Part shown: piece by piece, positions 8,412 through 59,313 of the stretch
How the letters are laid out: every line of letters starts with the position of its first letter
Position numbering within the stretch: position 1 is the stretch's first letter
Source: a virus
Lineage: Duplodnaviria; Caudoviricetes
IMG/VR virus record: IMGVR_UViG_3300014204_000116
Location: 64,001-128,000 of that record
Reading direction: 5' to 3' (one strand)
Length of the DNA: 64,000 nt
Made by a program: the position numbers and the translations under genes
The notes under the pieces: model-generated
Database searches by the model: none
What the model saw: only the letters and a program-made list of their open reading frames with translations
What the model was told of the DNA's origin: nothing

Positions 8412-9746
8412 ATGAAAAAGATCTCCTTCCCTCGCCCGATCCCGGTTCCCCTGTACTACCTGAAGCATCCTGCTCTCCGCCAAGTAGGCTGTCCAGTCTG
8501 CCACTCGCATAATGTCGCCATCGATCTGGGCAACACGGCTGTGGTGAAAGGGCCGGTAAAGCATCCGACTCTGGGGCCTATATTGGGCGAAGTATTCTCG
8601 GTGGTATGCCATTGTGCCATGGAGCATTCTTTCGTATTGCGCCTGGCCAACCACCGGAATACCTCTTTGGTGTGGACCGATGTCGCTATCGTTGCCACTT
8701 TACCGGATTCCATGGATGCTATTAAGAATGTCACGATAGATCCTCCCGTTGCCGCTCAGCAGGCATTCGATTTGTCCGCAGGAGGCAATGTGGTCACGGA
8801 TCACATGGACAAGCTGGAAAAGACTGGCATCCTTGGCGACGAAGACAAGGCTCTCTACGACGCGATGCAAAAGCATCAGCCTCCCGCAAAACCTATCGAC
8901 GAGATCCCAGGCAACAGTCTTGACGACGACCTCTACCACGAGGCCAAAGAGCCAGACGAGATGGATCATGAGCCGGAAGAGGGCAAGTGCGCAGAGTGCG
9001 AAGACACGGAGTGTAATAACAACCCGAATAATCCGACCAATCTGACCAATACTTTTCCAGGTGAATCTCCCAACACCGACTATTGCCATGCTGGTCTGTC
9101 TGTCACAGATTCTCTCTACGATATCAAGGAGTTTGGTGGCGTGCAGGATACTTGCATCTGCTGCCCCAACGTCGTATGCCCGGTAAACATGAAGGTCCAG
9201 AAGATGCTTCGCACTCGCAAATACAATCTGGACAGTTGTAACGGCGAGATTGTAACGAAGCCAATTGAGCCGCACGATAGATTTTTCGAGGAACTCCAGG
9301 AGATCCACGAAGAGAGGCTAGACCATTATGAGAAGGCCCTCAAGAGCCAAAGTCTCAATATCCTGCCCAATGTCGCAAAGAGGCTTTTGGCTAACCTGGC
9401 CGAAGTGAATAAGCTGAGCATACCCTCCTTCATAAAGGTCTACAAATTGAGGGAACAACTGGTGAGGGAAGAAGTTGGCTTGCGAACGGTGTTATGCAAG
9501 ATCCTGAGCATGCAGCCCGAAGATCCCATGGATGCACCGGCCTCGGAGGCCAGCCCGCAGCCGAATAAAAAGCTTGCTAATACGAAAAATGTAGACAATA
9601 ATGCTCCCAAGAAAGCACTCGTGCCTGGGTGCCCGGAGAAACTCACGGTGAGCCAGGCCAAGAGCGATCAGTGCCAGAAGTCTTTCTGCAAGGGCTGCGA
9701 GAAGACCAGTTGTCCGGCACATCCCGATCATAAGCCAAAAGTATGA
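8412..9746 (+). CDS. Cys-rich multi-zinc-finger-like protein
   Basis: CPVC...CHC, CAECEDTEC, CICCPNVVCPVN and CKGCEKTSCPAHP; its stop overlaps the first array gene (ATGA). Confidence 0.7.
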   Translation: MKKISFPRPIPVPLYYLKHPALRQVGCPVCHSHNVAIDLGNTAVVKGPVKHPTLGPILGEVFSVVCHCAMEHSFVLRLANHRNTSLVWTDVAIVATLPDSMDAIKNVTIDPPVAAQQAFDLSAGGNVVTDHMDKLEKTGILGDEDKALYDAMQKHQPPAKPIDEIPGNSLDDDLYHEAKEPDEMDHEPEEGKCAECEDTECNNNPNNPTNLTNTFPGESPNTDYCHAGLSVTDSLYDIKEFGGVQDTCICCPNVVCPVNMKVQKMLRTRKYNLDSCNGEIVTKPIEPHDRFFEELQEIHEERLDHYEKALKSQSLNILPNVAKRLLANLAEVNKLSIPSFIKVYKLREQLVREEVGLRTVLCKILSMQPEDPMDAPASEASPQPNKKLANTKNVDNNAPKKALVPGCPEKLTVSQAKSDQCQKSFCKGCEKTSCPAHPDHKPKV

Positions 9747-10312
9747 ATAAGACCACGAACAAGCCAAAAACTAAATGGGCACGCGCCAAGCGTCGGGAGG
9801 GGATAAAAGCCTGGAACGAAGTTCCTGCTCCATCCGTCCTTATCGACGTCCTTAGCCAAATCAGCGCTCCCAGGGCAGTCTTTGTGGAGGTCAGCATAGT
9901 TATTGCCGAGGCGGTTCTCCCCAAATTCGAGGCAAAGCTGCCCAAGGACACCCGACCTCGGCGGGCGATAGATACGGCCAAAGCCTGGCTCAAGGACGGG
10001 ACCGTATTGAATGGCGATGATCTTGTTGGGGCTGTCTGGGCTTCTCATTCTGGTCGAGTACTGGCTCGGGATGTTTCTTACGCTGCCTGGACCGCTTACT
10101 ATGCTGCTTGCACCGCCCACGCTGCTGCCGATACCAAGTCTAATGACGCCTATGCCTATGATGCTACGGTCCACTATGCTTCCACTACGGTTTCTCATGC
10201 CATCGACGCAGGCCTTGATTGCCAGCGCGCGATGGGCATCATTAAGAAGATAGGACACAAGCACTTTAAATTCCTGCGCGAGGCTAGCACAAATGAACAA
10301 GCCAAAGGCTAA
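9743..10312 (+). CDS. Imm5-like domain protein, array copy 1
   Basis: PKDTRPRRAIDTAKAWL, Ala-rich core, C-terminal IIKKIGHKHFKFL; basic N-terminus. Confidence 0.85.
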   Translation: MNKTTNKPKTKWARAKRREGIKAWNEVPAPSVLIDVLSQISAPRAVFVEVSIVIAEAVLPKFEAKLPKDTRPRRAIDTAKAWLKDGTVLNGDDLVGAVWASHSGRVLARDVSYAAWTAYYAACTAHAAADTKSNDAYAYDATVHYASTTVSHAIDAGLDCQRAMGIIKKIGHKHFKFLREASTNEQAKG

Positions 10313-10808
10313 AACCACGGGCCTGACTAAACTCGCTCGGGATCGCATCAAATACCAGGCGGAGATCAAGGCCTGGAACAAAGCTGATACCCTGAGGGAG
10401 GCCATCCACGTCCTTGCGGATATCAAAGCTCCCCAAGCGGCCTTTGTAGAGATCGGCATAGCAGCCGCTGTCGCAGTTCTTCCCGTGTTCGAAAAGAGTC
10501 GCCCCGATGATCCTCGATCTCGCAAGGCAATAGAGGCGCTCAAAGCTTTGCTTAGGCGCGGGACAAAGATCGACGATGCCATTGTTCATGATACTAGTGC
10601 TGCTGCCTGGATTGCTGACCGGAACGCTTCTTATGCGGCCTGGTCTGCTTACTACGCCCTCCAAAGCGCTCAGAGCAAGGATACTTCGGCGTATTATGCT
10701 TACTATGCAGTTTCCCATGCCGTTGGAGCGGGTCTTCGCCACCAGCGAGCAATAAGGATCATCAAGCGAATCGGGCACAAATACTTCGCATTCCTGAGCA
10801 AGCGCTAA
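10293..10808 (+). CDS. Imm5-like domain protein, array copy 2
   Basis: PDDPRSRKAIEALKAL, IIKRIGHKYFAFL; basic N-terminus. Confidence 0.85.
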   Translation: MNKPKAKTTGLTKLARDRIKYQAEIKAWNKADTLREAIHVLADIKAPQAAFVEIGIAAAVAVLPVFEKSRPDDPRSRKAIEALKALLRRGTKIDDAIVHDTSAAAWIADRNASYAAWSAYYALQSAQSKDTSAYYAYYAVSHAVGAGLRHQRAIRIIKRIGHKYFAFLSKR

Positions 10809-10812
10809 GCGA

Positions 10813-11454
10813 ATGAGTGCAAAACTCCAAGCTCTAGACCCTGCCGAATTTGTCCAGTCCTATACCGCAGACAAGTACAAGATGGAGATTGGCGCTTGGG
10901 ACAATGCTACCACTCCGGGGGATCTTCTCTACGCCCTTAAATCTCTCAAAGCTCCCTGCGCAGCCTACGTAGAAATGGGAATAATCATTTCCGAAGAAGC
11001 TCTTTCACAATTTGAGGGTGTGTATCCCAATGATCCTCGGCCTCGACAGGCAGTAGACGCTGCTAAAGCCTGGCTTAAGAATAGAACAGCGGCCAATGAG
11101 GGTGCTCTTAATAAGGCTACCGATAATGCCTACGCTGCTTATAACGCTAAGCTCCAGGCTGCCAGTATCACTTCTGAAACTAGCCGTGCTTGCAAGGGCA
11201 AGGAGGTTCAATTTCGTGCGGCTCAGGCTGCTGCACAGGCCGCTTCTGCTGCACAGGCCGCTTGTAGTGCTTCTTGCCACATATGTGATGCTGATGCCGA
11301 GATTGACTGTGCTTCTTGTGCAGCTTCGGCGACTGCTGGGGTAGCTAACGATGTTGCCCACTATGCCGTCAGGGCAGGTCGCCCCGTTAAAGATGTGATG
11401 GACATCATCAAGGAAGTAGGGCATAGATACTACACGTTTTTGAAGCAGAGCTAA
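10813..11454 (+). CDS. Imm5-like domain protein, array copy 3
   Basis: LDPAEFVQSY head; PNDPRPRQAVDAAKAWL. Confidence 0.88.
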   Translation: MSAKLQALDPAEFVQSYTADKYKMEIGAWDNATTPGDLLYALKSLKAPCAAYVEMGIIISEEALSQFEGVYPNDPRPRQAVDAAKAWLKNRTAANEGALNKATDNAYAAYNAKLQAASITSETSRACKGKEVQFRAAQAAAQAASAAQAACSASCHICDADAEIDCASCAASATAGVANDVAHYAVRAGRPVKDVMDIIKEVGHRYYTFLKQS

Positions 11455-12006
11455 ATGAACACAACAACCGAGATCACAGTCCCAGCCGAATTTGTTCGAG
11501 CTTTCACGGCGGACAAATACAGGAAAGAGATTGTGACTTGGCATACATCTTCTGCCCCGAGTGATCTTGTCATGGTTCTTAGAAACCTCAAAGCTCCCAG
11601 GGCAGCCTTCGTAGAGATTGGCGTAGCCCTGGCCGAGGGAGTTCTTCCAAAATACGAGAGCAGATATCCAGCAGATCTCCGCCCTCGGAAGACAATAGAC
11701 GCTGCAAAAGCTTGGCTTAGAGATGGATCAACAGCCAATGCTCAGGTTGCTGACAGGGAGACCCAGACTTTCTATATCATCACAAAAGTGGCCGACGCTA
11801 TTAGCTCAAATAATGCTACCATTAGCGCAAATAATGCTGCTTATGCGGCTGCTTGCGCTGCCTGGGTTGTCACTGCTGCCCTCTCTAATGTTTCCGTCGT
11901 TATGGCTGTCACTTACGCCATGAATGCAGGTCTCTCTCACCAATGCGTAATTGATATCATCAAAGAAGTGGGTCAGCGATACTTCGCATTCCTAAAGCAA
12001 GCCTGA
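11455..12006 (+). CDS. Imm5-like domain protein, array copy 4
   Basis: PADLRPRKTIDAAKAWL; abuts the previous gene (TAAATG). Confidence 0.88.
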   Translation: MNTTTEITVPAEFVRAFTADKYRKEIVTWHTSSAPSDLVMVLRNLKAPRAAFVEIGVALAEGVLPKYESRYPADLRPRKTIDAAKAWLRDGSTANAQVADRETQTFYIITKVADAISSNNATISANNAAYAAACAAWVVTAALSNVSVVMAVTYAMNAGLSHQCVIDIIKEVGQRYFAFLKQA

Positions 12007-12555
12007 ATGAATGCAATAGCCGAATCTCTAGATCCAGCCGAGTTTGTCCGATCCTACACCACGGACAAATATGGGGAGGAGATTGCAGCCTGGAGCGGGG
12101 CTACTCTTCCCGAGGATCTCATCGACGTCCTTAAGGATCTTAAGGTTCCCCAGATAGCTTATGCAGAGATCAGTGCAGCGCTGTCAGAAGCAGTTCTCCC
12201 CATATTTGAAAAGGAGCATCCCGATGATCCCGAACCTCGGCAAGCCATAGGGATTATCAAATCCTGGCTTAAGGATCAAACAGAAGCCAATGTTCGAGCT
12301 GCTAAGCAACTTTGGGTTTTTCACGCTGCCAATACCTCTTCCGATGCTGCTGTCGATGATCCTGCTGGGGCTGCTGCTTATGCGGCCCATACTGTTCTTT
12401 GTCATGCTATTCTTTCCATCGCTTCTCCTTTTCCTGCTCTATCTGCCCAACGGGCTGCTTTTACAGCCAGCCGGGCGGGCCTCCCTAACCGGCGCGCGAT
12501 GAGCCTGGTAAAAGAAGTGGGCCACAAGTATTTTGCATTTTTGAGCAAGGGCTGA
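12007..12555 (+). CDS. Imm5-like domain protein, array copy 5
   Basis: LDPAEFVRSY; PDDPEPRQAIGIIKSWL. Confidence 0.88.
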   Translation: MNAIAESLDPAEFVRSYTTDKYGEEIAAWSGATLPEDLIDVLKDLKVPQIAYAEISAALSEAVLPIFEKEHPDDPEPRQAIGIIKSWLKDQTEANVRAAKQLWVFHAANTSSDAAVDDPAGAAAYAAHTVLCHAILSIASPFPALSAQRAAFTASRAGLPNRRAMSLVKEVGHKYFAFLSKG

Positions 12556-13071
12556 ATGAGCACGACACTCCAAATTGTAGACCCCGCCGAGTTCGTGAAA
12601 GACTTCACGACGGCCAAGTATGCGCGGGAAATCAAGACCTGGAATGATCCCTCTTCTACCCCTAAGAATCTTGCCCATATCCTTCTCGATCTTAAAGCCC
12701 CCACGGCAGCCCTCGCAGAAATTGGTCTAACGTTGGCAGAAGAAGTTCTTCCGGTGTTTGAGAAGAAGTGCCCTAGCGACCCCCGGCCCAGGAAAGCTGT
12801 AAAGGCGGGAAAAGCCTGGCTTAAAGACAGAACGGAAGCTAATTACAATGCTGCTCAAATCAGCTCTTGGGCTGCTGCCGATGCTGCTCGGGCTGCCAGT
12901 GATGCTAATTCAGAAGATGCTTCCAATGCCGCCTGGACTGCCACTCACGCCCTTCACAACATCGAAGTTGCAGTTTTTTACGCGCGCTACGCCGGGCTTC
13001 CCAATCAACGTGCATTCGGCATCATCAAGAAGGTGGGCCACGATTACTTCGCATTCCTGAGTGAGAACTGA
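12556..13071 (+). CDS. Imm5-like domain protein, array copy 6
   Basis: VDPAEFVKDF; PSDPRPRKAVKAGKAWL. Confidence 0.88.
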   Translation: MSTTLQIVDPAEFVKDFTTAKYAREIKTWNDPSSTPKNLAHILLDLKAPTAALAEIGLTLAEEVLPVFEKKCPSDPRPRKAVKAGKAWLKDRTEANYNAAQISSWAAADAARAASDANSEDASNAAWTATHALHNIEVAVFYARYAGLPNQRAFGIIKKVGHDYFAFLSEN

Positions 13072-13749
13072 ATGAGTGCAACAACCCGAACTGTAGACCC
13101 TGCTGAATTCGTGAAGTCCTTCATGGAGGACAAGTATAGCAGGGAGATCAAGAACTGGAACGAAGTTTACGCGCCAGAGAGTCTCATCTTTATTCTCAAA
13201 GATCTCAAAGCTCCCCATGTAATCTACGCAGAAATTAGCGTAGCCTTGGCGGAAGAAGTCCTTCCGAGATATGAAGAGAAATACCCCAAAGATCTCCGTC
13301 CCCGACAGGCGATAAAATTCGCCAGAGATTGGCTCAACGATAGGACAATGAACAACGCTGCTTGTGCTGCTTGTGCTGCTGCCGCTGCTGCCGCGCGCGA
13401 GGCTGTTGATGCTGCCAATAGCGATATGTGGGCTGTTAATTCTGATGATTCGAATGATTCTGATGATTTTACGGTCGTTACCCCACAGGCCGTTAATGCT
13501 GCTCGGGCCGCGTATGATGCGGTTTCTTCTGCTGCCTGGGCGGGTGCCCACGTTACTCGGGCAGCTTCCAACATCAATTATGCTTCTCACTACGCGGGCC
13601 ATGCCGCCGATAATGCCGCCAGAGCAGGTCTTTCTGATCAGCGCATAATGGACATCATTAGAGTAATAGGGCATAGGTATTATACGTTTTTGAAGCAAAA
13701 CTATCGACATTACACTTTTGAAGTAAAGACGAATGAGCACAATGACTGA
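13072..13749 (+). CDS. Imm5-like domain protein, array copy 7
   Basis: PKDLRPRQAIKFARDWL; longest variable core, with an NSDDSNDSDD insert. Confidence 0.88.
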   Translation: MSATTRTVDPAEFVKSFMEDKYSREIKNWNEVYAPESLIFILKDLKAPHVIYAEISVALAEEVLPRYEEKYPKDLRPRQAIKFARDWLNDRTMNNAACAACAAAAAAAREAVDAANSDMWAVNSDDSNDSDDFTVVTPQAVNAARAAYDAVSSAAWAGAHVTRAASNINYASHYAGHAADNAARAGLSDQRIMDIIRVIGHRYYTFLKQNYRHYTFEVKTNEHND

Positions 13750-14305
13750 GGCTTTAGACCCGGCTACGTTTGTCCAGTCTTACCTGGTGGACAAATATAA
13801 GGCTGAGATTGTAGCCTGGAACGAGGCTCCCTCTCCAAACGCTTTTATCGATATTCTTCGGGATCTCAATGCTTCCAAAGCTGCTTTTGTAGAGATCTGC
13901 GTGGCGTTGGCTGAGGAAGTTCTTCCGGTGTTCGAAAAGGAATTTCCCAAAGATCTCCGCCCTCGGAAAGCAATAGAAGCAGCCAAAGCCTGGCTTAAAG
14001 ATCGAACAGCCGCTAATACCCGAGCTGCTGCTGTTGCTTCTGATGCCGCTTCCAATGCTGCTGTTAATTCTACCGCTATTAAACTTGTTTCTGTTCTTGA
14101 AACTTGGTCTGCTTCTGTCGTTGTCGGTGCTGCTGCTTGGGCTGCCAGCAGAGCTGCTAGTGCTGCTGCTGATACTTCTTATGCTTCTGACTTCACATTT
14201 TGCACCGCTGACGATGCCACTAGAGCAGGTCTTCCTGGGCATCGTATAATGGACATCTTCAGGGAAGTGGGCTACAAGTATTATGCGTTTTTGAAGCCAA
14301 GATGA
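13733..14305 (+). CDS. Imm5-like domain protein, array copy 8
   Basis: EALDPATFVQSY; PKDLRPRKAIEAAKAWL. Confidence 0.88.
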   Translation: MSTMTEALDPATFVQSYLVDKYKAEIVAWNEAPSPNAFIDILRDLNASKAAFVEICVALAEEVLPVFEKEFPKDLRPRKAIEAAKAWLKDRTAANTRAAAVASDAASNAAVNSTAIKLVSVLETWSASVVVGAAAWAASRAASAAADTSYASDFTFCTADDATRAGLPGHRIMDIFREVGYKYYAFLKPR

Positions 14306-14851
14306 ATGAGCACAACAACCATAGATCCCTCCGAGTTCGTTAAGTCTTACACTGCGGAAAGGTATAAGGCTGAGATTAAGGCCTGGAACAAAGCCATTAC
14401 TCCAAGTGCTCTCATCAACTTCCTTAGAGCCTTCAAAGCCCCTAAGGCAGTCTTTGTAGAGATCGGCATAGCGCTTGCAGAAGAAGTTCTGCAAGAATTT
14501 GAGAAGAGATGCCCCAAAGATCGCTGTCCTCATCGAGCAATAAAAGCTGCCAAAGCTTGGCTTAACAATAGAACGGAAGCTAATGCCCAAGCGGCCCGCG
14601 TTAGGGCTACGGAGGTTTACGAAATTTCTTGGGCTTGTGCTACTTCTAATGACGCTGTTAGCAGTACTTATGCCGCTCGTACTGCGGCTTGGGCTGCCCA
14701 CGCTGCTGAAGCGGAGACTCCTGTTGATGCCGCGTACAATACTGACAACGCGCTCGCTTATGCCCTGGCGGCAGATCTTCCTCCCGTACGCGCGCTTGAC
14801 ATCATCAAGGAAGTAGGATATAGATATTATACATTTTTGAAACAGAATTGA
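14306..14851 (+). CDS. Imm5-like domain protein, array copy 9
   Basis: IDPSEFVKSY; PKDRCPHRAIKAAKAWL. Confidence 0.88.
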   Translation: MSTTTIDPSEFVKSYTAERYKAEIKAWNKAITPSALINFLRAFKAPKAVFVEIGIALAEEVLQEFEKRCPKDRCPHRAIKAAKAWLNNRTEANAQAARVRATEVYEISWACATSNDAVSSTYAARTAAWAAHAAEAETPVDAAYNTDNALAYALAADLPPVRALDIIKEVGYRYYTFLKQN

Positions 14852-14865
14852 TCGAATATGGCCGG

Positions 14866-15405
14866 ATGAGCACGACAACCGAAATTGTAGACCCCGCTGA
14901 ATTTGTCCAGTCCTTTACTGCGGCCAAATATCAGAGAGTGGTAGACGCCTGGAGCAATACTCTTTCTCCAGGATGTTTTATCAACGCTTTGGCATCCGCC
15001 AAAGCCCCCAAGGCAGTCTATGTAGAGATCTGCCTGGCGTTCGCAGACGAAATTCTGTCGGTGTTTGAAGAGAAGCACCCTGAAGACTTCCGCCCTCGAA
15101 GGGCAGTAGAAGCAGCCAGGGCCTGGCTTGAGAATAGAACCACTGCTAACGAAGAAGCTGCGCGCAAAGCTGCTGGGGAGGCTTCTCTCGTGGCTTTTAT
15201 CTATTGCGACGACAACACCACTCGTGCTGCTACCTGGGCTACCTGGGCTACCGCTAATACCGCTGGGGCCACGTTTTCTTACGCTGCCTATAATGCTGTC
15301 CAAGCCGTTATCTACGCTATTGGAGCCGGTATTCCTCAACAGCATCTCATGGATATCATTCGGGATGTGGTCCATAGATACTACGCATTTTTGAGCCTGT
15401 GTTAA
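14866..15405 (+). CDS. Imm5-like domain protein, array copy 10
   Basis: Start MSTTTEIVDPAEFV chosen by analogy with its paralogues; PEDFRPRRAVEAARAWL. Confidence 0.88.
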   Translation: MSTTTEIVDPAEFVQSFTAAKYQRVVDAWSNTLSPGCFINALASAKAPKAVYVEICLAFADEILSVFEEKHPEDFRPRRAVEAARAWLENRTTANEEAARKAAGEASLVAFIYCDDNTTRAATWATWATANTAGATFSYAAYNAVQAVIYAIGAGIPQQHLMDIIRDVVHRYYAFLSLC

Positions 15406-15996
15406 ATGAGTGCGACCGCTGAAACTTTAGATCCTGCTACATTCGTTCAGTCTTATATTGTGACCAAGTATAAGAAGGAGATCGAAGCCTGGGGCAAATC
15501 TGCCATTCCAGAAGAACTCATTAGCATTCTTAAAGACCTCAGGGCTCCCAAGGCAGCTTTTGCAGAGATCAGCATAATTCTTGCAGAAGGCATTCTTCCT
15601 GCAATTGAATTAAGGCATCCTGGAGATCTCCGCCCACGTAGGGCGTTAGAAGCTGCAAAAGTCTACTTTAATAAAGATACCGAAGATAATGCTAAAGCCG
15701 TTACCGAAGCTATCGACCACGCATTTAAAGCCGAAGCCGAAGCTACCGGCCATGCTGAATCTGCTGCTGCTGCCTACGCTATTTGTTATGCTGCTCGTGC
15801 CTCTTGTGCCCGCAATATTGAGGAAGCGTCTAATAATGCTGCTTGGACTGCTTATTATGCCACGGCAACATTCCGCATAAAAGCATCCTATGACGCTGTT
15901 GAGGCGACTTCTGCGGTCCTTAACCAGCAGCATATACTGGATGTCATAAGGAAAGTGGGCCGCAAACATTTTGCATTCTTAAACAAGGCCAAATGA
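15406..15996 (+). CDS. Imm5-like domain protein, array copy 11
   Basis: ETLDPATFVQSY; PGDLRPRRALEAAK. Confidence 0.88.
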   Translation: MSATAETLDPATFVQSYIVTKYKKEIEAWGKSAIPEELISILKDLRAPKAAFAEISIILAEGILPAIELRHPGDLRPRRALEAAKVYFNKDTEDNAKAVTEAIDHAFKAEAEATGHAESAAAAYAICYAARASCARNIEEASNNAAWTAYYATATFRIKASYDAVEATSAVLNQQHILDVIRKVGRKHFAFLNKAK

Positions 15997-16631
15997 GCAC
16001 GCTAACCGAAACTTTAAATCCTGCCGAGTTCGTTCAGTCCTATACCCTGCAAAAATATCGGAGGGAGATCGAGGCCTGGGGAAAAGCCGCTACTCCAGGT
16101 GATCTCATCAATGTTCTCAGAATCATCGGCGCTCCGAAAGCCACCTATGTGGAGATCAGCATAGCTCTTGCCGAAGAAGTTCTCCCTGTGTTTGAAAAGG
16201 AATGTCCTCAAGATCCCCGTCCTCGGCAAGCCGTAGAAGCGGCCAAAGCTTGGCTTGTGGGCGGGACACAGGCTAATGTTGAGGCTTCTGCAAAAAGTGC
16301 TGAGGGGGCTTTTAATGCTGTTTGGAATATTAACGCGCTTATGGCAGGGGAGGCCAGGTATGCCGGTCGTGTTGCCTACTGCGCTGCTTATGCTGCTGCT
16401 TATCCTGTGAGTAATGCTGATCAAGCTGCTGTCACTTTCGCTATTGCCTACGCTGTTACCACTTCCGTAGGATATGCCTCTTACACCGCTGCCTGCGCTG
16501 ATCAATCTGCCCAGGCGGCTTATAGTGCTGCTTATTATGCCGTTGAAGCAGGCTTTTCTAATCGTCTTGCGGTGGATATCGTTAGAAGGGTGGGCTGTAG
16601 GTATTTTGCATTCTTGAGGAAAACCAAATGA
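15993..16631 (+). CDS. Imm5-like domain protein, array copy 12
   Basis: ETLNPAEFVQSY; PQDPRPRQAVEAAKAWL. Confidence 0.88.
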   Translation: MSTLTETLNPAEFVQSYTLQKYRREIEAWGKAATPGDLINVLRIIGAPKATYVEISIALAEEVLPVFEKECPQDPRPRQAVEAAKAWLVGGTQANVEASAKSAEGAFNAVWNINALMAGEARYAGRVAYCAAYAAAYPVSNADQAAVTFAIAYAVTTSVGYASYTAACADQSAQAAYSAAYYAVEAGFSNRLAVDIVRRVGCRYFAFLRKTK

Positions 16632-17215
16632 GCCCGACAGCCAAAATTGTAGACCCTGCCGAGTTCGTTCAATCCTTTACTGCGACCAAGTATAAGGAGG
16701 GGATCGAGGTTTGGCGTGATGCTGAGACGCCAGCGGATCTTATTTTTGCTCTTCGAACCCTTAAGGCCCCCAAGGCAGCCTATGCCGAAATTAGTGCAGC
16801 CCTTGCCGAAGAAGTTCTACCGGCATTCGAAAAGAAGTACCCTTGTGATCTTCGGCCTCGGAAAGCCGTAGAGGCTGCCAAAGCTTGGATTAAGAATAGA
16901 ACAGCGGCTAATGCCAGGGCGGCAGAAGAAGCTTCCAACGATGCGTGGCATGCTGCCGATTATGCTACCGACGCTACCTTAATGATGGTTGCCAATGATG
17001 GTGCTGCTGATGCAGCTTCTGCTGCCTACAACGCCGCTGCTGTTGCTTCTGCCGCCTACCCTATTTTCAATGCTTGCCATGTCGAGGGTGATTACACCAT
17101 CTATGCCATTTACGGCACCGTTGACGCCGCCAAGACGGGCATACCCAATCAGCGCATACTGGACACGATCAAAGAAGTGGGCTATAGATATTTTTCGTTC
17201 TTGAAGCCGAGCTGA
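16628..17215 (+). CDS. Imm5-like domain protein, array copy 13
   Basis: VDPAEFVQSF; PCDLRPRKAVEAAKAWI. Confidence 0.88.
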   Translation: MSPTAKIVDPAEFVQSFTATKYKEGIEVWRDAETPADLIFALRTLKAPKAAYAEISAALAEEVLPAFEKKYPCDLRPRKAVEAAKAWIKNRTAANARAAEEASNDAWHAADYATDATLMMVANDGAADAASAAYNAAAVASAAYPIFNACHVEGDYTIYAIYGTVDAAKTGIPNQRILDTIKEVGYRYFSFLKPS

Positions 17216-17228
17216 ATGAGTACAGCGA

Positions 17229-17816
17229 ATGAGTACAATGAGTACGACGACTGCCATCATAGATCCTGCTGAATTTGTCCGGTCTTACACCGAAGCCAAA
17301 TACTGGAAGGAGATCAGGAGCTGGAATGAGGCTGAGGCCCCGGAGGATCTTATCGATGTCCTCAGAGTTCTCAAAGCTCCTAAGATAGCCTTTGTAGAGG
17401 TTGTTGTAGCACTCGCCGAAGAGGTTTTTCCGACGTTCAAGAAGAAGCACCCCAAAGATCTCCGACCTCGGCAAGCAATAGATGCGGCCAAAGCTTGGTT
17501 TAAGGACCAAACGGAAACCAATACTAATGCCGTGAGGGTTGCTGCCATTGCTGCTAATAGAGCTGCCCATGATTGTGCTGCCCGCGCCGATTGTGCCGCT
17601 CAGGCTGCTACCGACAGCGCTTACGTCGCTGGCAATGCTGCTTCTATCACTGCCTATATCGATGATGTCGAGTATCCTGTCGCCTATTCCACTGTTGTTT
17701 CTTATGCCTGCATCGCTACCAGTAATGCTATTCGGGCAGGTCTTTCCGTCGAATGCGCAATGGATATCATTAGGAAAGCGGGTCATAAGCGTTTTGCATT
17801 CTTAAGATTAGATTAA
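17229..17816 (+). CDS. Imm5-like domain protein, array copy 14
   Basis: IDPAEFVRSY; PKDLRPRQAIDAAKAWF. Confidence 0.88.
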   Translation: MSTMSTTTAIIDPAEFVRSYTEAKYWKEIRSWNEAEAPEDLIDVLRVLKAPKIAFVEVVVALAEEVFPTFKKKHPKDLRPRQAIDAAKAWFKDQTETNTNAVRVAAIAANRAAHDCAARADCAAQAATDSAYVAGNAASITAYIDDVEYPVAYSTVVSYACIATSNAIRAGLSVECAMDIIRKAGHKRFAFLRLD

Positions 17817-17869
17817 ATATATCTTGAAATGGAGGCAAGAATTGTCTATCCTGCATACGAACCGATAAT

Positions 17870-20800
17870 ATGAACACGGACACTACCAGGACGGAGAAAC
17901 TCTTGCTTAGCATTGCTGCCGATTTCAAGCGGGGTGCCCAGCCAATGAATCCGGCATGGCTGAGTGAGAATAATGTGGAGTTGAGGGAACTCGAAGCCCT
18001 CGGGAGCAAGCTCGACATTATCATCCGAGGGTGGGCTCTGGCACCAGGTAGAGTCCGGGCTGCGATCCTGGCTTGTGCACTTTCTGATGACAAACAGTCA
18101 GCCGAGTACAAGGCGACCGTGGTGCTGAAGGCAATAGAAGGGATTTGAAATGAGCATAGAAGTGTGGGTGGATACGGAGGATCTGGCCGATGTAATCAAC
18201 GGCAAGAAGACGAAATTTATAGGGCACTGCTACGAGGCGAAGGACCGGTGGTGTGCTCGGTACAAGGTAATATTCGGGATGGACTGGCATGTCCGCGAAG
18301 TCGATGGGGACTGCATCACAATGGAGAAAAACGCATGATCACGCTCGTAAAAGGAATGCTGCGCCAGGAGGCTGCAAAGCTGAAGTTTCCGTGGTGGCTG
18401 GGCCGGGTAGCCCACTGCCCAAATTGCGGCGGGCAATTCAAGTTGGAGAAAAACGACAGCGTCAATGACATGAATCAGCGCGAGGACTTACCGCCCCACG
18501 CCGAGGTTGTGTGCCCAACGGTAGGATGTAGCCACATTATCTGGCTAAGGCGATGACTACCCTCTGCAAAAAATACCTGGAGATCGTCCGTAACTACAAA
18601 ATAGTTGAGCGTGATGCCACTCGGCAGCGATGAAAAAGCCAAAGAAAAGAGTTATGACACCGATGAAAAAGCCAAAGAAAACACTGGAGATCGAGACTAC
18701 GGTGGCAGTTGTAGAAGAGATTGCCGAGGCCACAATGAGTGTACTGACGATTGGCAGCTTTTCGAGCGATCTTTTTAGCTCGAAGACGCGCCGGGTATGG
18801 AGACGTGCAACCACCATGGCTGATCGCTATAAGGACTGCGACGTGGATGTCAATTTTATATTACCTACTTTGGCAAATACGAAAAAGAAGAATTGCACAT
18901 TTACCGTGTCAGCTCCGGTGCGCGAGAAGATTACCCGAGGTTAAACCATGAATCGCGGCCAGGCCAGAAAGTTCGCTTTGGAGTGCAGTACTCCAACCAC
19001 AGAGATCATATACATGGAGACCCCTCATTCTGAATCCCGAGAGATGGGAAAGATCAACTGGCACGTTAAGTGTGGTGACACCTTTACCATCAACGGCATT
19101 ACAGTGCGCGTGAAAGGCCACGGTCCCATTGACTCTCTGCATCAGCGCGCGCTGGTAGGGCCTGCTCCTGCCGATCACGATCCGAACGGGGTGGCACCAC
19201 ATTAATTTAAGTTTTTGATTGCAATTTCACAGGGATCACTTAGGGTAGCAGTTGTAACGGTGGTTAAACCAATAAACCAATGAGTAAAGAGCAGATGTCC
19301 AAGGCCCAAGTCGAATTGCTGCTGGCCATCAGCCACGGCAGGAAATACGTGGCGAGCTGGTATCCGAGTGCAAACAAACTCGTGGCATATGGCTACGCGC
19401 AGTGGGTGGGAAACAAGCTCGAAATAACCGAGGCCGGACTTCAGGCTCTCGCGACAAGACCGGAGGCAAAATGAAAGTAGTAGTCAACGAACATGATCAC
19501 AGTTTTAACATCGTATTGACCGCCGAGTCCATGGCAGACATGTCTTCTATCGTGAGACTCGGAATGAACTCTGTCAAGGCGGTGACGTATAAGCAAGCCA
19601 ATGTCTACCAGGGAGGGGCAGCAACCATGGACATCTCGTTTGACAAGCGTAGAAACGCGGGCTCAATCGTTCCAGTCAAGGGAGTAGTATAGCCCATGCA
19701 AAAGACCATCCATATCACGCACCAGGTAGTCCTCACCTATGACAAGGCCAAGTTCACCAAGGAGTTCATGGCCAACTTCCAGGCGCATTTCTACCCTTTT
19801 ACGACTGTGGATCAGCACCTGAACCACATCGCATATTCCATAGTCAGGGGCACCGTTGCGCATTCGTCGGATTTTCTTGAAGGCTACGGCAAGCTTAGCA
19901 GTTGGGGTATTACGTGGGATCTGGTAACCTTAGAACCGGGAGAATAAAATGGCACGAGTAAAAGCAAAATTTTTCGTCGAGCTGCCCTCCAAGAAGGGCC
20001 AAAAGCAAAAGCAAAAGCGGCGTAAGCCTACTTCCAAGGAAATGGTAGAGGCTGACGACCTGCGGCTAGAGATCGAGTCCAGGCGGCACAGCTTAGAGTG
20101 TGCAAAGCAGGAGCTAGCCCGCGCGGAAGCCCGGTGCGAGCATAATGTCAATTTCGAAAAGGATATGGAAGGATACGTCGTCCGTAGCTGCTATATCTGC
20201 GGGCATCCCAAGGGCATCCTGTAGACATCCTGAATTAAGTTCTAGTAAGTGAATCTGATTATGCTAACGATTGTAGACAAAACTGTCGAACTGTTTCAAG
20301 AGGCCGTGGAGAACAGTGGCAACCATTACCTCTACTTTGAACTCGCCTACACCAAGCAGACCAAATGGATGTGCTGGCTTCAGAACCGGGAGGGCGGCGA
20401 GGATCACAAGTACAATTTCATCCCACCGGGCCAGGCCGATGAACCCGGTGTAGCCTGCGTGCCTATCAAGAACTTTCTCCAGGCATGGAAGAACAACGGA
20501 TGGAAGCCGTATAACCCACCGGCTGTCCACCCCAATACGCCCCATCCGTTCGACGGCAAGTGGGGAGTGGCCGACGCTTCCTCGGAGGAAAAATGAGAGT
20601 ATCATCCGGTGCATGCGAAACTGTAACAATCTAACGGTTTGGAAGCGATGAGAGTTACCCGACTAGTCTTAATCGAACGCGACATCAAGTGCTGCTACAA
20701 AGAGTGTCCTTACATGAAAGTCGAAGGGGCAGAGAGCTTGATGGTGTGCGAACATCCTGAAGCCCCGGAAGTGAATGGTCGCAAAGGACTTATTATCAGT

Positions 20801-21246: not shown

Positions 21247-21396
21247 TCCCCAAAGGATGAAGACTATAGGTGAAGCATTCGTCCTGGGCCTGATGATCGG
21301 CATCCTGATCGGCGCACTGTTCACGACCATCTATCTTGTCTGCTATTACAGCCATGGCTATCGCCACGGTATAACACTCACAGAACTACCTAACTT

Positions 21397-22434: not shown

Positions 22435-22450
22435 GCATAAATATTCAAGT

Positions 22451-22660: not shown

Positions 22661-22669
22661 CCTTGTGCT

Positions 22670-22676
22670 GTAGTTA
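22670..22676 (+). promoter_or_regulatory. GTAGTTA element (candidate late promoter)
   Basis: 8 nt before ATG 22685. Confidence 0.6.
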
Positions 22677-22684
22677 CCTACAGC

Positions 22685-31651: not shown

Positions 31652-31659
31652 GTATGCAG

Positions 31660-53565: not shown

Positions 53566-53568
53566 TTT

Positions 53569-54417: not shown

Positions 54418-54422
54418 AAAGC

Positions 54423-54728: not shown

Positions 54729-54733
54729 ACTTG

Positions 54734-54994
54734 ATGTCACTGACAGAATACATTGTAGACAGTTTGCTACAAGAATCTCCTAATCTTGAGACGCTGAAGA
54801 AGCACAAGGTAGCCCTAACGCCGGACGAGAAGCGGAGTTTTAAGGAGTGCAGCCAGGATCAGTCAGCCACGGCCATGAAATCGGTCGTCAACGGCAAGAC
54901 CTGGTACGCATGCTATACGCACCGAGCTTGCCAGGTTAGCCCTACCCTCAAGGGCGCTCTAAAGGCTTATCCAGAAATTGCTGCTACCGGCTAG
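54734..54994 (+). CDS. Small putative head protein
   Basis: MSLTEYIVDSLLQES motif; GTAGTTA at 54721-54727. Confidence 0.65.
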   Translation: MSLTEYIVDSLLQESPNLETLKKHKVALTPDEKRSFKECSQDQSATAMKSVVNGKTWYACYTHRACQVSPTLKGALKAYPEIAATG

Positions 54995-55008
54995 CGCGTA
55001 GTTAAGCT

Positions 55009-58000
55009 GTGACGACGTTACGCACTCAACATGTGCCACCTGACACGGGCCAAGCTTCTGACACTCCAGGGACCGCCCAGGGAGTTGCGCGTGCACTTTT
55101 AGACAGTAGTCCTGAGCTTACTAGCGCCGAAATTGGCGACATGGCCGCATCCGCTGGAATTGGCAAGGTTGTCGCCCAAATCGCCGATGCCGATCCCCCG
55201 GAGGCAGCCGACATCCGCTCACCCCGTAACTGGTTCATTACAAAATGGGACGTGATGTACGGGGGTCAGAAGATTGGATACATCACCCGCAGCAGGGATA
55301 ACCCGCTACAGTTTAGACCATTTACCACGATTAATCCGGCGTCCAAGTCCTGTAACTTTAGCCGCTTACGGGACGCCCTCGCCTGGGTCATGGTTCATCG
55401 TGTGAAAAACTGGGCGGCGAGCGAGAGGCTTGCCCAACACGCCACAGTAGAGGAATCTCACACATCGAACGAGTCCTTAATATTGGTGCATGAGGCCGAG
55501 GAGATCCAAATGTCGGACATCTGGAAGTCAGCGAATAAGCCCCAGCTCCGCAAGGACGATAAGGGTAAGGATGTACTCCACATCCCTCACCTGGCTGCAA
55601 TTACACCGGATCAGTGGGAGAAGATTTCAGGCATTATGCGGGGCAAAGGCTACGACTCACGTGGCGCTGCTGACGCCAGCCGGGCTGTCCAATCAATGCT
55701 GCGCAGGGCAGGTGAAAGTGGAGAGGCGAGAGTTTTAAAACACGAGGATTGGGTTGATACCATTGCCAAAGTCATTGGGTTGAAAGCGTCGTCACAAGAG
55801 CTTAAGGCTGGTGACAGGGCTGCAACGGCCCGCAAGGTATTCGCACGAGCGGTCAAGAGCTGGGGATTAACTAATAACCCAGACGTGGCTGGCTATATCC
55901 TTCCGAATGGCTCGATGCTGGACTTGTCCGGTGGATCGGGGCGGCGTGCTTACGACCACCGGCAGGTTGGGTCATTCCTTGAGCCTTCTGAACAGGGGCG
56001 TGGAGCCACAGATTGCATGCACGAGTTCATGGATCTGGGGGCTATACGCTGGATGCCAGAAGGCCCAGGTATGGATATTCGCGTGCCACCCACCAAGGCG
56101 CAGTATGCCCAAATTGCCCGTATTAAGGACGAGGCGCATGGTCAGCTCTATCTCGACGTGTATTCGCCGAACTATGGCAAGGCCTACCGTGGATACGGTC
56201 CTAGCCATACCAGCCAGCGCGTCGTCAATGACATCGTCTCGTTTTACAAGACGGGCAAACTGGGGCATATGCCCGAGGTTCAGCAATTTCACGGGATGGG
56301 AGAGTCTGAAGAGTCTGAGTTTTTTAAGTCTTTTACGTCGTCTAAGTACGCGAAAGAGATTGAATTTTGGAACATAGCCACTACTCCGATGCTTCTTATC
56401 AGCACTCTCCGGGATCTTAAAGTTCCAGCGGCAGCCTTCGTAGAAATCAGTGTAGCACTGACAGAAGAAGTTCTTCCGAAGTTTGAAGAGGCGTACTCCG
56501 AAAATCTCCAACCGCGTAAGGCGATAGAGGCTGCAAAAGCTTGGCTCAAGGATAGAACAGCGGCTAACGCTGAAGCGGCTGAAACGGCTGACTATGCTGC
56601 TGCGGTTGCTGCTGACCATGTCGCTTCTTATTCTTCTAGTGCTTCTTATGTTGCTTCTGCTGCTTCTTACACTGCCAGGGCTGCTCACACTGCCCATAAC
56701 TCTCAGCGGGCTTCTTACGATGCTTATGCCATTAACGCGATATTCTATTACACCGCTAAGGCAGGCCTTTCTGCCACGCGCATGGTGGATATCATCAAGA
56801 GAGTGGGCCACCAATATTTTGCATTCTTACCCCTGAGTAAGTCGAGTAAGGTAGCGGAAGCTGGCGAAACTTTAGATCCTGCCGAGTTCGTTAAGTCTTA
56901 CCATGCGGATAAGTACGGGTCTAAGATCAGAGATTGGAGCTTGGTCTCTGAGCCTGTGGCTCTTCTTCGCATACTGGAGTCTCTCAATGCTCCGAAGTCA
57001 ACCTACGTAGAAATCAACATAGCCTTGGCAGAAGAAGTTCTTCCGGTGTTTGAGAAGAAGCGTCCCAAAGATCTCCGCCCCCGAAAAGCGATAGAAGCGG
57101 CCAAAGCTTGGTTTAAGGACAGGACATCGGCCAATGCTCAGATCGTCCTCGATGTCTCTCAGGGTGCCTGGAAGGCTACCAACGCCTGTACTAGTTCCCC
57201 AGAACACGCCGCTTTTGCCATATATTATGCTACTGTCAGTGTTACTGCTGAGACTGTTAGCCCTAGCGGCGCTTGGACTGCTATTGATGCTGCCCATTAC
57301 ACTGTTGCTGACGTTATTAATGCAGGCATTCCTAAGCAACGCGTGGCAGACATCATCAGGGAAGTGGGGCGAAGTTATTTTGGATTCTTACCCCAGGAAG
57401 GGCATGAAAAGGCAGAAGAGCCAGCCGTAGGCGAAGCTTTAGATCCTTCTGAGTTTGTTAAATCCTACACCACGGCCAAATACCAAAAGGCTATCCATGA
57501 TTGGGGTACAGCTACTACTCCTGGGGATCTTAATCTCGTTCTTAAATCTCTCAAAGCTCCCAAGGCAGCTTTTGTAGAGGTTGCCATAGCATTTGCCGAA
57601 GAAGTTCTTCCAATGGTTGAAAAGGTGTTGCCCAATGATCTTCGACCTCGGCAAGCGATAGAAGCTGCCAAAGTTTGGCTTAAAGACAGAACAGAAGCTA
57701 ATGCTCAAGCCGCTAACGAAGCTTCTGACGAAGCTCTGGCTGCTTCTGCCGATGCCGCTACTGAATCTTATACTGCCTGGAATGCTGTTCAAACTGCTGC
57801 TCGGGCTGCTAATATGGCTTGGGTTGCTTCTACCGATGATGACGCCGGGATGGTTTATAAATACGCTTCTTATATCAATTATTACACCACCAGGGCCGGT
57901 CTCTCTAACCAGCGTGCCATGGACATCTTTAGGGAAATTGGTGGGAGATACTTTTCGTTCTTAGCCCAGAGTCCAAGCGAGGGCATGGCCGAAGTGATTG

Positions 58001-59313
58001 TAACAAATTTGCTGGATGAAGTCTTAGACCCAGCCGAGTTTGTTCAGTCCTACGCTGTGGCCAAGTACCAGAAGGAGATCGAGACTTGGAACAAAGCTGC
58101 CACCCCGTTGGATTTTATCCACACCCTTAAAGCCCTTAAGGCTCCTAAGGCAGCTTTTGTAGAAATTAGCCTAGCGTGTGCAGAAAAAGTTCTTCCAGAA
58201 TTCGAAGAAAGCTTTCCTAAGGATCTCCGGCCCCGCAAGGCTGTAGAGGCTGTAAAAGCTTGGCTTAAGAACAGAACGGGGGCTAATACCCAAGTAGCTG
58301 CTAATGCTGCTCGGGCTGCCTATGCGGCTGCCCATGCTACTTGGGCTGTTAATAGCACTAAGGCTGCTCGGATTGCTCGGGCTGCTAATGCTGCTGCTCG
58401 GGCTGCTAGTGCTGCTGCCGCTGCTGGTGCTATTAGTTATGACATTTCTGGGGATACTGCTGCGGTTGCTACCTACGCTGTTGAAGCGGGCCTCCCTAGC
58501 CAGCGCGTAATGGATATCATTAAGGAAGTGGGCCATAAATACTTTTCGTTCTTAGGCCAGGGCACCGCGAGAGGGATGGCCGAAGCAATCGTAGCAAATA
58601 TGTTGGGCGAATCGGAGGGAACCGATATTCCATCCCCGGAGGAAGAGCCGCTCATTGCCGACATTTCGCCGGAGGACATTGCGCTAAGGTCTGGTATTTT
58701 GGACCGGTATGTCCAGGTAGGTGGTGACTTTGGAGATCCGTGGGTTTATGGGGGCACTTGGTACAGCGCTTACGTGGCTAAGTCTAAAAGTCGGTGGGAT
58801 TGTATCTACCACATAGACGGCATGGAAGGCGAAGGCTTGTCAGATTATGATGCCGGGAGTAAGGCCGTTAAAAAGGCGTTAGAAGAGCCCCAATATGCTG
58901 CTTTGATAGCAAAACGGGCAGAAGAGCTTTTGCCGGATAGACTCCGTTCTCAGGGCTACGGCAAATATCCCGATGCTGATCCTGCTGAAGAGGCGGACAC
59001 GCTGAAATGGTGCCAGCGAGAAGTATTAGACGATGCGAAGAACGAGATTGCAGATAAACTAGCGGATGAGATGAACAAGAACCGCACACTTGCTGTTTAT
59101 CGTGTATCTGACGATGATTTATTTGACAATAACCCGAAGCGAATTTCTGAAGTTGTGCAGTTCCTGGGCATAACGCTGGAGGAGTGGGAGGAGATGCCTA
59201 CTGTAGATAAGATAGTTGCATACGCTGACAACTACGGTTGGTACAATCTGGATCATGACCCGGTAAGGATGACAAAAGACGATCTGATCGCTAGGATAAA
59301 GGTGGAGTTGTGA
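55009..59313 (+). CDS. Modular polyprotein (1434 aa) with 4 Imm5-like units between unrelated modules
   Basis: Units start at ~56302, 56866, 57433 and 58018; the N-terminal part has GYILPNGSMLDLSGG...DHRQV; GTAGTTA at 54998-55004. Confidence 0.88.
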   Translation: MTTLRTQHVPPDTGQASDTPGTAQGVARALLDSSPELTSAEIGDMAASAGIGKVVAQIADADPPEAADIRSPRNWFITKWDVMYGGQKIGYITRSRDNPLQFRPFTTINPASKSCNFSRLRDALAWVMVHRVKNWAASERLAQHATVEESHTSNESLILVHEAEEIQMSDIWKSANKPQLRKDDKGKDVLHIPHLAAITPDQWEKISGIMRGKGYDSRGAADASRAVQSMLRRAGESGEARVLKHEDWVDTIAKVIGLKASSQELKAGDRAATARKVFARAVKSWGLTNNPDVAGYILPNGSMLDLSGGSGRRAYDHRQVGSFLEPSEQGRGATDCMHEFMDLGAIRWMPEGPGMDIRVPPTKAQYAQIARIKDEAHGQLYLDVYSPNYGKAYRGYGPSHTSQRVVNDIVSFYKTGKLGHMPEVQQFHGMGESEESEFFKSFTSSKYAKEIEFWNIATTPMLLISTLRDLKVPAAAFVEISVALTEEVLPKFEEAYSENLQPRKAIEAAKAWLKDRTAANAEAAETADYAAAVAADHVASYSSSASYVASAASYTARAAHTAHNSQRASYDAYAINAIFYYTAKAGLSATRMVDIIKRVGHQYFAFLPLSKSSKVAEAGETLDPAEFVKSYHADKYGSKIRDWSLVSEPVALLRILESLNAPKSTYVEINIALAEEVLPVFEKKRPKDLRPRKAIEAAKAWFKDRTSANAQIVLDVSQGAWKATNACTSSPEHAAFAIYYATVSVTAETVSPSGAWTAIDAAHYTVADVINAGIPKQRVADIIREVGRSYFGFLPQEGHEKAEEPAVGEALDPSEFVKSYTTAKYQKAIHDWGTATTPGDLNLVLKSLKAPKAAFVEVAIAFAEEVLPMVEKVLPNDLRPRQAIEAAKVWLKDRTEANAQAANEASDEALAASADAATESYTAWNAVQTAARAANMAWVASTDDDAGMVYKYASYINYYTTRAGLSNQRAMDIFREIGGRYFSFLAQSPSEGMAEVIVTNLLDEVLDPAEFVQSYAVAKYQKEIETWNKAATPLDFIHTLKALKAPKAAFVEISLACAEKVLPEFEESFPKDLRPRKAVEAVKAWLKNRTGANTQVAANAARAAYAAAHATWAVNSTKAARIARAANAAARAASAAAAAGAISYDISGDTAAVATYAVEAGLPSQRVMDIIKEVGHKYFSFLGQGTARGMAEAIVANMLGESEGTDIPSPEEEPLIADISPEDIALRSGILDRYVQVGGDFGDPWVYGGTWYSAYVAKSKSRWDCIYHIDGMEGEGLSDYDAGSKAVKKALEEPQYAALIAKRAEELLPDRLRSQGYGKYPDADPAEEADTLKWCQREVLDDAKNEIADKLADEMNKNRTLAVYRVSDDDLFDNNPKRISEVVQFLGITLEEWEEMPTVDKIVAYADNYGWYNLDHDPVRMTKDDLIARIKVEL

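Follow-up and report, generated by a model that had tools for sequence, protein, structure and literature searches.

A stretch of 64,000 nucleotides (nt) from a tailed phage, which comprises bases 64001-128000 of the 159,890-bp IMG/VR record IMGVR_UViG_3300014204_000116 (CheckV completeness, 72%) and is referred to here as the window, contains 33 diverged copies of a single protein domain that is similar to the Imm5_like family. The copies occur in three formats: an array of 14 stand-alone genes (9743-17816), a fusion protein of 2,987 amino acids (aa) with 15 units (22685-31648), and a 1,434-aa chimera with four units (56302-58563). An original prediction, made from the letters of the sequence, had proposed this number and placement of the copies, and both were confirmed by the open reading frames (ORFs) and by an alignment of the units. 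As had also been claimed, the blocks make up 30% of the window (a total of ~19.3 kb). Thus, ~19 kb, or ~12% of the 160-kb record, is given over to 33 versions of one domain. Because ~66 kb of the 226-kb genome (see below) lies outside the record, 33 units is a minimum for the whole genome.

The Imm5-like units and their three formats

The Pfam model for Imm5_like (PF21805; curated cut-off, 25 bits) matched at 31 places in the record, all of them within the window. Twenty-five of the matches were above the cut-off and six were below it, and two units were detected only by alignment. A score of 85.4 bits was obtained for the initial 700 aa of the 2,987-aa protein. These results, together with a top viral structural match that is named Imm-5-like, bear out the earlier assignment of the domain to an Imm5-like family. 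In an alignment of the 33 units (271 columns), W29, L42, F186, and L187 were invariant, and F13, K21, Y22, P48, E54, E61, E68, P72, P77, R78, A80, W87, G166, and G180 were conserved in at least 90% of the units. All of the units align with the motifs that had been listed for them, except that array genes 1 and 2 lack DPxEFV and that the first unit of the 1,434-aa protein begins with SEFFKSF instead of LDP. The sequence AE.VL..FE..P.D.RPRKAIEAAK, followed by AAxxAAxAA, is common to the consensus of the 33 units and to the consensus of 70 members of the family from outside the phage. The Imm5_like family spans bacteria, archaea, and phages and has a nearly invariant charged loop-helix motif. The units have extensions of their own, DPxEFVxSY..KY..EI..W at the N terminus and AGL..DII.EVG..YF.FL at the C terminus, neither of which was encountered outside this phage. 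When JGI metagenome contigs were searched with the N-terminal motif, no relatives emerged, and a tblastn search of cultured phages with a unit returned zero matches.

One scan revealed Imm5-like genes in 161 viral stretches. In other phages these are mostly single small genes among small ORFs of the early or accessory type, with one to four copies per locus and one to three per large genome, in agreement with the earlier statement that the family is mainly represented by one or a few copies per genome. No paper that mentions Imm5_like was found in the library of papers that was searched.

The array consists of 14 plus-strand ORFs of 171-225 aa each. It is probably headed by a 444-aa Cys-rich ORF of no known family (8412-9746, plus strand), the stop codon of which overlaps the start of array gene 1 (ATGA). 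Genes 1 (189 aa; 9743-10312; 27.3 bits to PF21805) and 2 (171 aa; 10293-10808) encode divergent units that lack the DPxEFV N terminus and form a clade. Next come gene 3 (213 aa; 10813-11454) and genes 4 (183 aa; 11455-12006), 5 (182 aa; 12007-12555), and 6 (171 aa; 12556-13071), each of which starts immediately after the stop codon of the preceding gene. Gene 7 (225 aa; 13072-13749) has a 9-nt GCT repeat in its variable region, with one repeat unit different in a strain from wastewater (see below), and gene 8 (190 aa; 13733-14305; 34.7 bits to PF21805) encodes the unit that we modeled. The remaining members are gene 9 (181 aa; 14306-14851), gene 10 (14848-15405; 185 aa from a TTG codon, or 179 aa from an ATG at 14866), gene 11 (196 aa; 15406-15996), genes 12 (212 aa; 15993-16631) and 13 (195 aa; 16628-17215), both of which start within an ATGA overlap, and gene 14 (195 aa; 17229-17816). 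At the 13 junctions of the array the ATG abuts the preceding stop codon in six cases, overlap is seen in four, and a gap of 4-14 nt is seen in three, the spacing ranging from -20 to +14 nt. Such abutting or overlapping junctions, with no Shine-Dalgarno-like spacer, represent an arrangement for translational coupling. A scan for σ70 promoters and terminators around the array gave counts equal to those for shuffled sequences. Genes similar to those for inosine monophosphate dehydrogenase (IMPDH)/GMP reductase and for NUDIX proteins (6312-7962) lie directly upstream of the array operon, which suggests that the array is part of a block of metabolic or early genes.

The 2,987-aa protein (22685-31648, plus strand) begins with a 42-aa Cys/His N terminus, continues with 15 units joined by 14 linkers of 10-20 aa (22811-31348), and ends with a C-terminal domain of ~100 aa that belongs to no known family and for which a search found no relatives. 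Public gene calls begin this ORF 102 nt downstream, at an ATG (2,953 aa). The C..C..CPAH sequence at its N terminus is resembled by the end (C..C..CPAH) of a ~150-aa C-terminal extension of the 444-aa ORF, an extension that is missing from the 253-aa homolog in a related phage. Directly 3' of the 15-unit gene is a 521-aa ORF (31654-33219, plus strand), a search for relatives of which in viral contigs found none. Upstream of the 15-unit gene, a 15-nt tandem repeat (21398-21474; five copies, 95% match) is located at the start of a 345-aa ORF.

The 1,434-aa protein (55009-59313, plus strand; GTG start codon) is composed of three types of domains, whereas the 2,987-aa protein is essentially a homopolymer. 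Its N-domain (residues ~183-432; 55555-56304) has 1,468 relatives, either as stand-alone proteins or within proteins of 2.5-6 thousand aa. The model of this ~250-aa domain is confident (predicted local distance difference test [pLDDT] score, 91), with a Gly, an Arg, a His (in a D-H pair), and a Gln as invariant residues. The predicted fold has no match in the Protein Data Bank: neither Foldseek nor VIA-align (best Z, 3.8) identified it, nothing usable came from a feature search of the ESM Atlas, and the domain has no match in Pfam, PHROG, PADLOC, or NCBIfam. The N-domain is followed by the four Imm5-like units and by an acidic C-terminal domain (GDFGDPWVYGG...; 58564-59313). Finally, the tails (FL-K-Q-x) and N termini (M-S-T-x-T-E-x-LDP) of the array genes match the ends of the fusion linkers (FL-x-Q-G ... 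x-E-x-LDP), and hence one format looks to be derived from the other.

The DNA itself has been recovered repeatedly. As judged by PHROG matches to tail sheath, portal, baseplate wedge, and tail-fiber proteins, the phage is a myovirus; it is an environmental, uncultured jumbo myovirus of ~226 kb. Identical DNA (99.98-100% identity) was assembled independently in JGI and Logan contigs and in a 225,968-bp ENA contig (ERZ27247350, k141_2050970) that probably represents the complete genome. The runs that hold it are landfill, groundwater, and wastewater metagenomes from three studies. Whole-region DNA searches of cultured phages and plasmids returned zero matches. Repeated domains are prone to misassembly, and in one contig (L094, from JGI 3300035208) two indels break the large ORF into genes of 455 and 2,410 aa, either through a sequencing error or because this variant is split in nature. 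That the repeats are an artefact of assembly or sequencing, a danger of which the original prediction had warned, is nonetheless exceedingly improbable, for the copies are so diverged in protein sequence (28%-61% identity) that there is nothing to collapse. Moreover, a landfill run (43-58×) and a groundwater run (4-10×) from separate studies both cover positions 8001-28000 (20 kb) with 100% identity and at a uniform depth, and the wastewater strain, which is ~95%-97% identical, keeps the array genes and their reading frames. The independent runs and assemblies and the diverged strain together exclude an artefact for practical purposes. Two wastewater runs labeled "RNA-Seq cDNA," which were available as contigs only, look like DNA and are silent on transcripts.

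Fold and diversification of the units

An AlphaFold2 model of array gene 8, with the 33-row alignment as input, predicted a compact nine-helix bundle (pLDDT, 94; predicted template modeling score, 0.89). In an exhaustive structural comparison the top match was 7jtu_B (Z, 12.0; root-mean-square deviation, 3.1; 147 of 193 residues), followed by two DUF416 proteins (Z, 10.5); all other matches had a Z of 7 or less. Foldseek also ranked 7jtu_B (probability, 0.98), and the top viral structural match was an "Imm-5-like domain-containing protein." A shape search of the ESM Atlas with the unit gave nothing relevant. Chain B of 7JTU is SsdAI, the all-helical, single-domain immunity protein for the type VI secretion system single-stranded DNA deaminase toxin SsdA, and it acts by pushing a loop and two short helices into the active site of the toxin (PMC7901873). 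Imm5 was defined as conferring immunity to DYW-type deaminases and CdiA-CT toxins (Zhang 2012, PMC3482391), and the structural match to SsdAI therefore agrees with the name of the family. SsdAI is only 10% identical to the unit, and profile searches of solved chains, both with the unit profile and with a profile of 70 family members, revealed no link at the level of sequence. We take the match to indicate a protein that may work like SsdAI, not a proven homolog.

The units differ extensively from one another. Their pairwise identity was 28%-61% (median, 44%), in keeping with the claim that the core is different in every copy, and both identity and per-column entropy support the view that a conserved scaffold carries a variable part. 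The scaffold (residues ~9-92 and 162-187) has a mean column entropy of ~1.2 bits; the variable part (residues ~93-161) has an entropy of 2.2-2.9 bits and is 49-92 residues long. The model shows it as a long helical hairpin (helices 93-119 and 125-146) with an additional helix (151-164). The variable part is 35% alanine and is rich in Ser, Val, Thr, Tyr, Asp, and Asn. The entropy along the two helices of the hairpin is periodic, with a peak at 100-105 degrees (index, 5.5 and 3.2). Conserved alanines return at intervals of three to four residues, whereas the intervening positions are nearly random, at up to ~3 bits. The alanine stripe is probably a packing face, and the other faces, which are hypervariable and contain many Ala, Ser, Thr, Tyr, Asp, and Asn residues, would be exposed.

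The original prediction had proposed a phylogeny of the units and an analysis of substitution rates as checks on this design. Nonsynonymous difference was indeed higher in the variable part (0.53) than in the scaffold (0.28), but the saturation of synonymous sites bars a test for selection. The tree of the 33 units is a star with ~1 change per site on its end branches; the three formats are intermixed in it, and no order of events can be read from it. Between strains, the differences listed within the array genes were 11 synonymous and 7 nonsynonymous, and the indels were in frame. The 11:7 ratio is the signature of expressed genes under purifying selection.

How the variation arises is indicated by short repeats. 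Tandem Repeats Finder detected in-frame repeats of 9, 12, 18, and 21 nt, of the type GCT-GCT-NNN, in the variable parts of many units. In the wastewater strain 9 nt are deleted at 13357 and another 9 nt are inserted at 23202, both changes falling exactly on such repeats, and further in-frame indels are present. We also considered the units as targets of a diversity-generating retroelement. No RVT_1 reverse transcriptase was found in the record, in a search in which the controls worked, and the candidate was rejected, as the variation includes indels and extends beyond adenine-templated sites. Given indels on the repeats and the lack of a reverse transcriptase, diversification is by slippage of short in-frame GCT-rich repeats, followed by point changes.

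Shared signals at the fusion genes and a relative lacking the units

The sequence GTAGTTA is present at 33 sites in the record, 22 of which are 1-10 nt upstream of a start codon. The genes that it precedes include the portal gene, three tail-fiber-like genes, both fusion genes, tag-bearing ORFs (see below), and several small ORFs. The array has no GTAGTTA within it or ahead of it, and the earlier observation that the element precedes the fusions and not the array was thus upheld and extended to the portal and fiber-like genes. In the window it is found at 741, 22670, 54721, and 54998 and, on the minus strand, at 62165 and 63361. One of these copies (22670-22676, plus strand) precedes the ATG of the 15-unit gene by 8 nt; another (54998-55004, plus strand) precedes the GTG of the 1,434-aa gene by 4 nt and is conserved in the related phage, at the same distance from the GTG of the unit-less ortholog. 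GTAGTTA stands where a Shine-Dalgarno sequence would be. Its role may be that of a late promoter, a site of processing, or a signal for translation.

A second feature is a short amphipathic tag, A-E-x-I/V-V-x-x-L-L-x-E/D, which is a candidate capsid-targeting or processing signal. The corresponding search motif, [AS]-[EQRKDN]-x-[IVLA]-[IV]-x-x-[LMI]-[LMI]-x-[ED], occurred 12 times, as compared to 0.29 times in shuffled proteins (maximum, 2), an enrichment of ~40-fold. The tag is located at residues 3-8 of otherwise unrelated ORFs and in six linkers of the fusion proteins. In the 2,987-aa protein it is found in linker 7 (AEVIVTNLLDE; 26777-26809) and, as the same type of tag, at 27365-27397, 29627-29659, and 30752-30784. 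In the 1,434-aa protein it is found in linker 3 (AEVIVTNLLDE; 57988-58020) and after the last unit (AEAIVANMLGE; 58579-58611). Within the window the N-terminally tagged ORFs are 752-1096, 54731-54994, and the 521-aa ORF at 31654-33219, which carries the tag at residues 5-15 (MQMNAEHIVGTLIGE). Among them are the immediate downstream neighbor of the 15-unit gene and the immediate upstream neighbor of the four-unit gene. Further tagged ORFs are at 143316, 145429, 44603, 134456 (minus strand), and 154948 in the coordinates of the record.

The linkers have a third feature in common: a Glu two residues ahead of the start of the following unit in 16 of the 17 inter-unit linkers, with A/L/V-x-E at P3-P1. 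In the 2,987-aa protein this Glu precedes an LDP or LDS unit start in 13 of 14 linkers. The sites resemble the rule for the T4 protease (L/I-x-E) and that for the prohead protease of SPN3US (A-x-E, with V preferred at P4; PMC10052503). Neither a peptidase domain nor, in PHROG scans of ~40 ORFs, a prohead protease was found. From the sharing of GTAGTTA with virion genes, the tag, and the x-x-Glu linkers, we tentatively suggest that the fusion proteins may be late-expressed, capsid-targeted, and cleaved into products of the size of a unit.

A search with the N-domain uncovered orthologs of the 1,434-aa protein (P0125, P0126, and P0127), which are 744, 657, and 725 aa in length and 65%-52% identical. 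All have the N- and C-domains, which are joined directly by a short tag-bearing linker, and none has an Imm5-like unit. The four units are thus at the position of an inter-domain linker, and the cassette would have entered an existing linker in frame. The contig with the 657-aa ortholog (~27 kb, from two runs) is syntenic with window positions 8430-60100, at ~45%-70% aa identity. Relatives of the phage were seen in runs SRR10566890 and SRR10566891. In the syntenic relative no array is present: the 253-aa counterpart of the 444-aa ORF stands immediately ahead of homologs of the genes from window position 18389 onward. In place of the region corresponding to window 20.6-39.4 kb, which includes the 15-unit gene, the relative has a MAD7-family gene, a gene for a 658-aa methyltransferase, and small ORFs. 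No Imm5-like unit was found in profile and hhalign searches throughout the contig. The MAD7-family gene is whole in the relative (376 aa), and a 115-aa ORF of the window (20249-20596) is an N-terminal remnant of it (69% identity over 101 aa); the breakpoint of the 15-unit island is inside this ORF.

The comparison of copy number with related phages that had been proposed as a check therefore gives zero at three loci in the relative, against one to three copies in other large phages. Since the relative has no units at the three matching sites, the three blocks are gains, or losses, within this lineage. As judged by sequence comparison, the expansion is lineage-specific, and its units move as in-frame cassettes. 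The lack of the copies at three loci in a relative amounts to a natural experiment and points to strong recent selection.

Possible functions and related systems

The explanation that we favor, with a probability of about 0.5, is that a lineage-specific, 33-fold expansion of the Imm5_like family, in three formats, provides the phage with a set of inhibitors. Each unit would combine a conserved scaffold, with its loop-helix (E..L..FE...P.D.RPR.AIEAAK.W), and a variable helical hairpin with an alanine packing stripe, and would act as a stoichiometric binder-inhibitor, as SsdAI blocks a deaminase toxin. Thirty-three versions would cover many variants of the effectors of hosts or competitors and would represent a phage-borne "polyimmunity" set. 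We infer this mode of action by analogy, from the family name, the SsdAI-like fold, the design of a scaffold with a variable face, and the location in a swap-prone island with methyltransferases. Less certainly, the fusions would be made together with the virion genes, the A-E-x-I-V-x-x-L-L-x-E tag would direct them into the prohead, and cleavage would follow the Glu in each linker. Premade units would then accompany the DNA into the next cell, and the operon would supply units after infection. The full scheme strikes us as doubtful: a capsid preloaded with polyprotein, from which the head protease would release 15 (+4) different inhibitors, an injected library of antitoxin or antidefense binders that act before phage gene expression, the separately regulated operon topping up the supply, slippage creating specificities, and cassettes moving at the tag linkers.

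Several results weigh against the favored explanation. The record yielded no gene for a toxin or a deaminase (in a search for DYW deaminases the controls were also silent), no toxin family was found in the ORFs that flank the blocks, and no recurrent toxin was seen beside Imm5-like genes elsewhere, the 48 phage and 19 cellular neighbors being heterogeneous. No defense-system or NCBIfam model matches the units. The most conserved feature of the family is a charged loop motif found across all life, which could mean one common ligand. The likeness to SsdAI is structural only, and a Z of 12 can be reached by chance among helical bundles. Synonymous sites are saturated (median proportion of synonymous differences, 0.64), and hence positive selection cannot be shown. 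As for the fusions, a Glu precedes LDP in six stand-alone genes as well, and it may therefore be a feature of the domain and not a cleavage site. Neither a prohead protease (PF03420) in the 72%-complete record nor a T4-type major capsid gene in the 160-kb record was found, in searches in which the positive controls were also silent.

Could the units instead be structural, that is, internal head proteins or bulk cargo of an "inner body" like the paralogs of phiKZ-type phages, with a hairpin that varies because it is under weak constraint? SPN3US has a family of 20 diverged head paralogs, 17 of them in one tandem run, and the copy number ranges from 2 to 20 among related phages (PMC5694885). The fusions share GTAGTTA with virion genes and have the tag and x-x-E linkers, and the nonsynonymous difference in the variable part is near the synonymous value, as expected from weak constraint. 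Nevertheless, we regard this explanation as unlikely. The array has no GTAGTTA and lies downstream of the IMPDH-like and NUDIX genes, away from structural genes. Imm5-like genes elsewhere are mostly single, small, and of the early or accessory type and are common in cellular genomes, which have no capsid. The units have no homology to SPN3US family B (hhalign probability, 0.06%), and the relative builds its virion without units at these loci. We consider it quite improbable, in turn, that the units confer true polyimmunity by shielding the infected cell from contact-dependent or secreted toxins of its neighbors during a long cycle or a carrier state, the role that has been proposed for chromosomal polyimmunity loci. 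In its favor, the array conforms to the description of a homogeneous polyimmunity locus and the fusions to that of "polyimmunity proteins" (PMC3482391), and Imm5 was defined against DYW-type deaminase and CdiA-CT toxins, in agreement with a fold that matches a deaminase immunity protein. However, the parts of the record that were read show no sign of lysogeny functions, the sampled Imm5_like loci have no neighboring toxin, and GTAGTTA and the tag on the fusions point to the virion.

The interpretation in the original prediction was supported in part. The original prediction knew of no described system of this kind, which was overstated, as polyimmunity loci and proteins, polyvalent proteins, and the SPN3US head paralogs are close conceptual precedents. 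The units are tied to Pfam Imm5_like (PF21805) and Imm5 (PF14423) by matches to hidden Markov models, the core motif, and alanine-rich helices, and are set apart by their number, 33 as compared to one to four genes per phage locus or one to three per large phage genome elsewhere. Polyimmunity loci and proteins with multiple immunity domains have been described in bacterial chromosomes (Zhang 2012, PMC3482391). Like these, the phage has tandem, co-oriented, tightly spaced paralogs of the immunity type and polypeptides with multiple immunity domains. As in homogeneous loci, the array has at least four tandem same-strand paralogs at small spacing with no toxin genes between them. However, Imm5 is not among the homogeneous loci listed, the largest protein cited has 10 domains as compared to 15 here, and the occurrence of both formats in one genome, as in this phage, is said to be unusual. 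Polyvalent proteins are large multidomain phage proteins that have been proposed to be packaged, sometimes processed, and injected (Iyer 2017, PMC5512222). The N-domain of the 1,434-aa protein similarly recurs inside proteins of 2.5-6 thousand aa, but polyvalent proteins mix different, mostly enzymatic domains, and neither immunity-protein domains nor SUKH are mentioned (PMC5512222).

The head proteins of SPN3US, phiKZ, and T4 offer tandem diverged paralogs, variable copy number, short N-terminal targeting peptides, and cleavage at x-x-Glu. They differ in that family B has no homology to the units and that delivery of a 15-unit polyprotein is not described there. Finally, in gp54 of mycobacteriophage Tweety, a counterdefense protein, the number of Ala-Ala-x-x repeats retunes activity against a prophage defense (PMC9262239). 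An Ala-rich region changes in length in both cases, by repeat slippage in the units, but gp54 is the product of a single gene with 40-48 near-perfect repeats, and hhalign aligned only three columns, at a probability of 3.6%. Although neither is homologous to the units, gp54 and the SPN3US paralogs are precedents for designs of this type in phages. The phage is, then, an extreme, lineage-specific variant of a phage accessory family, one that unites features of polyimmunity, of polyvalent proteins, and of the paralogs of giant phages.

Among the accessory genes of phages that still lack an explanation, those of the Imm5-like type rank with the commonest. Should the units prove to be inhibitors, they would constitute a ready-made panel for finding the bacterial effectors that they neutralize; they also offer a compact helical scaffold, the surface of which has been diversified naturally. 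Cutting and injection of the fusions, if they take place, would represent a new phage route for delivering many countermeasures at once. The tag and GTAGTTA could give handles on the targeting of capsid cargo and on late gene control in an uncultured jumbo lineage. Elsewhere in the window, a 141-aa ORF (36620-37045) carries a type IV pilin-like N-terminal methylation motif (PF07963, 24.5 bits).

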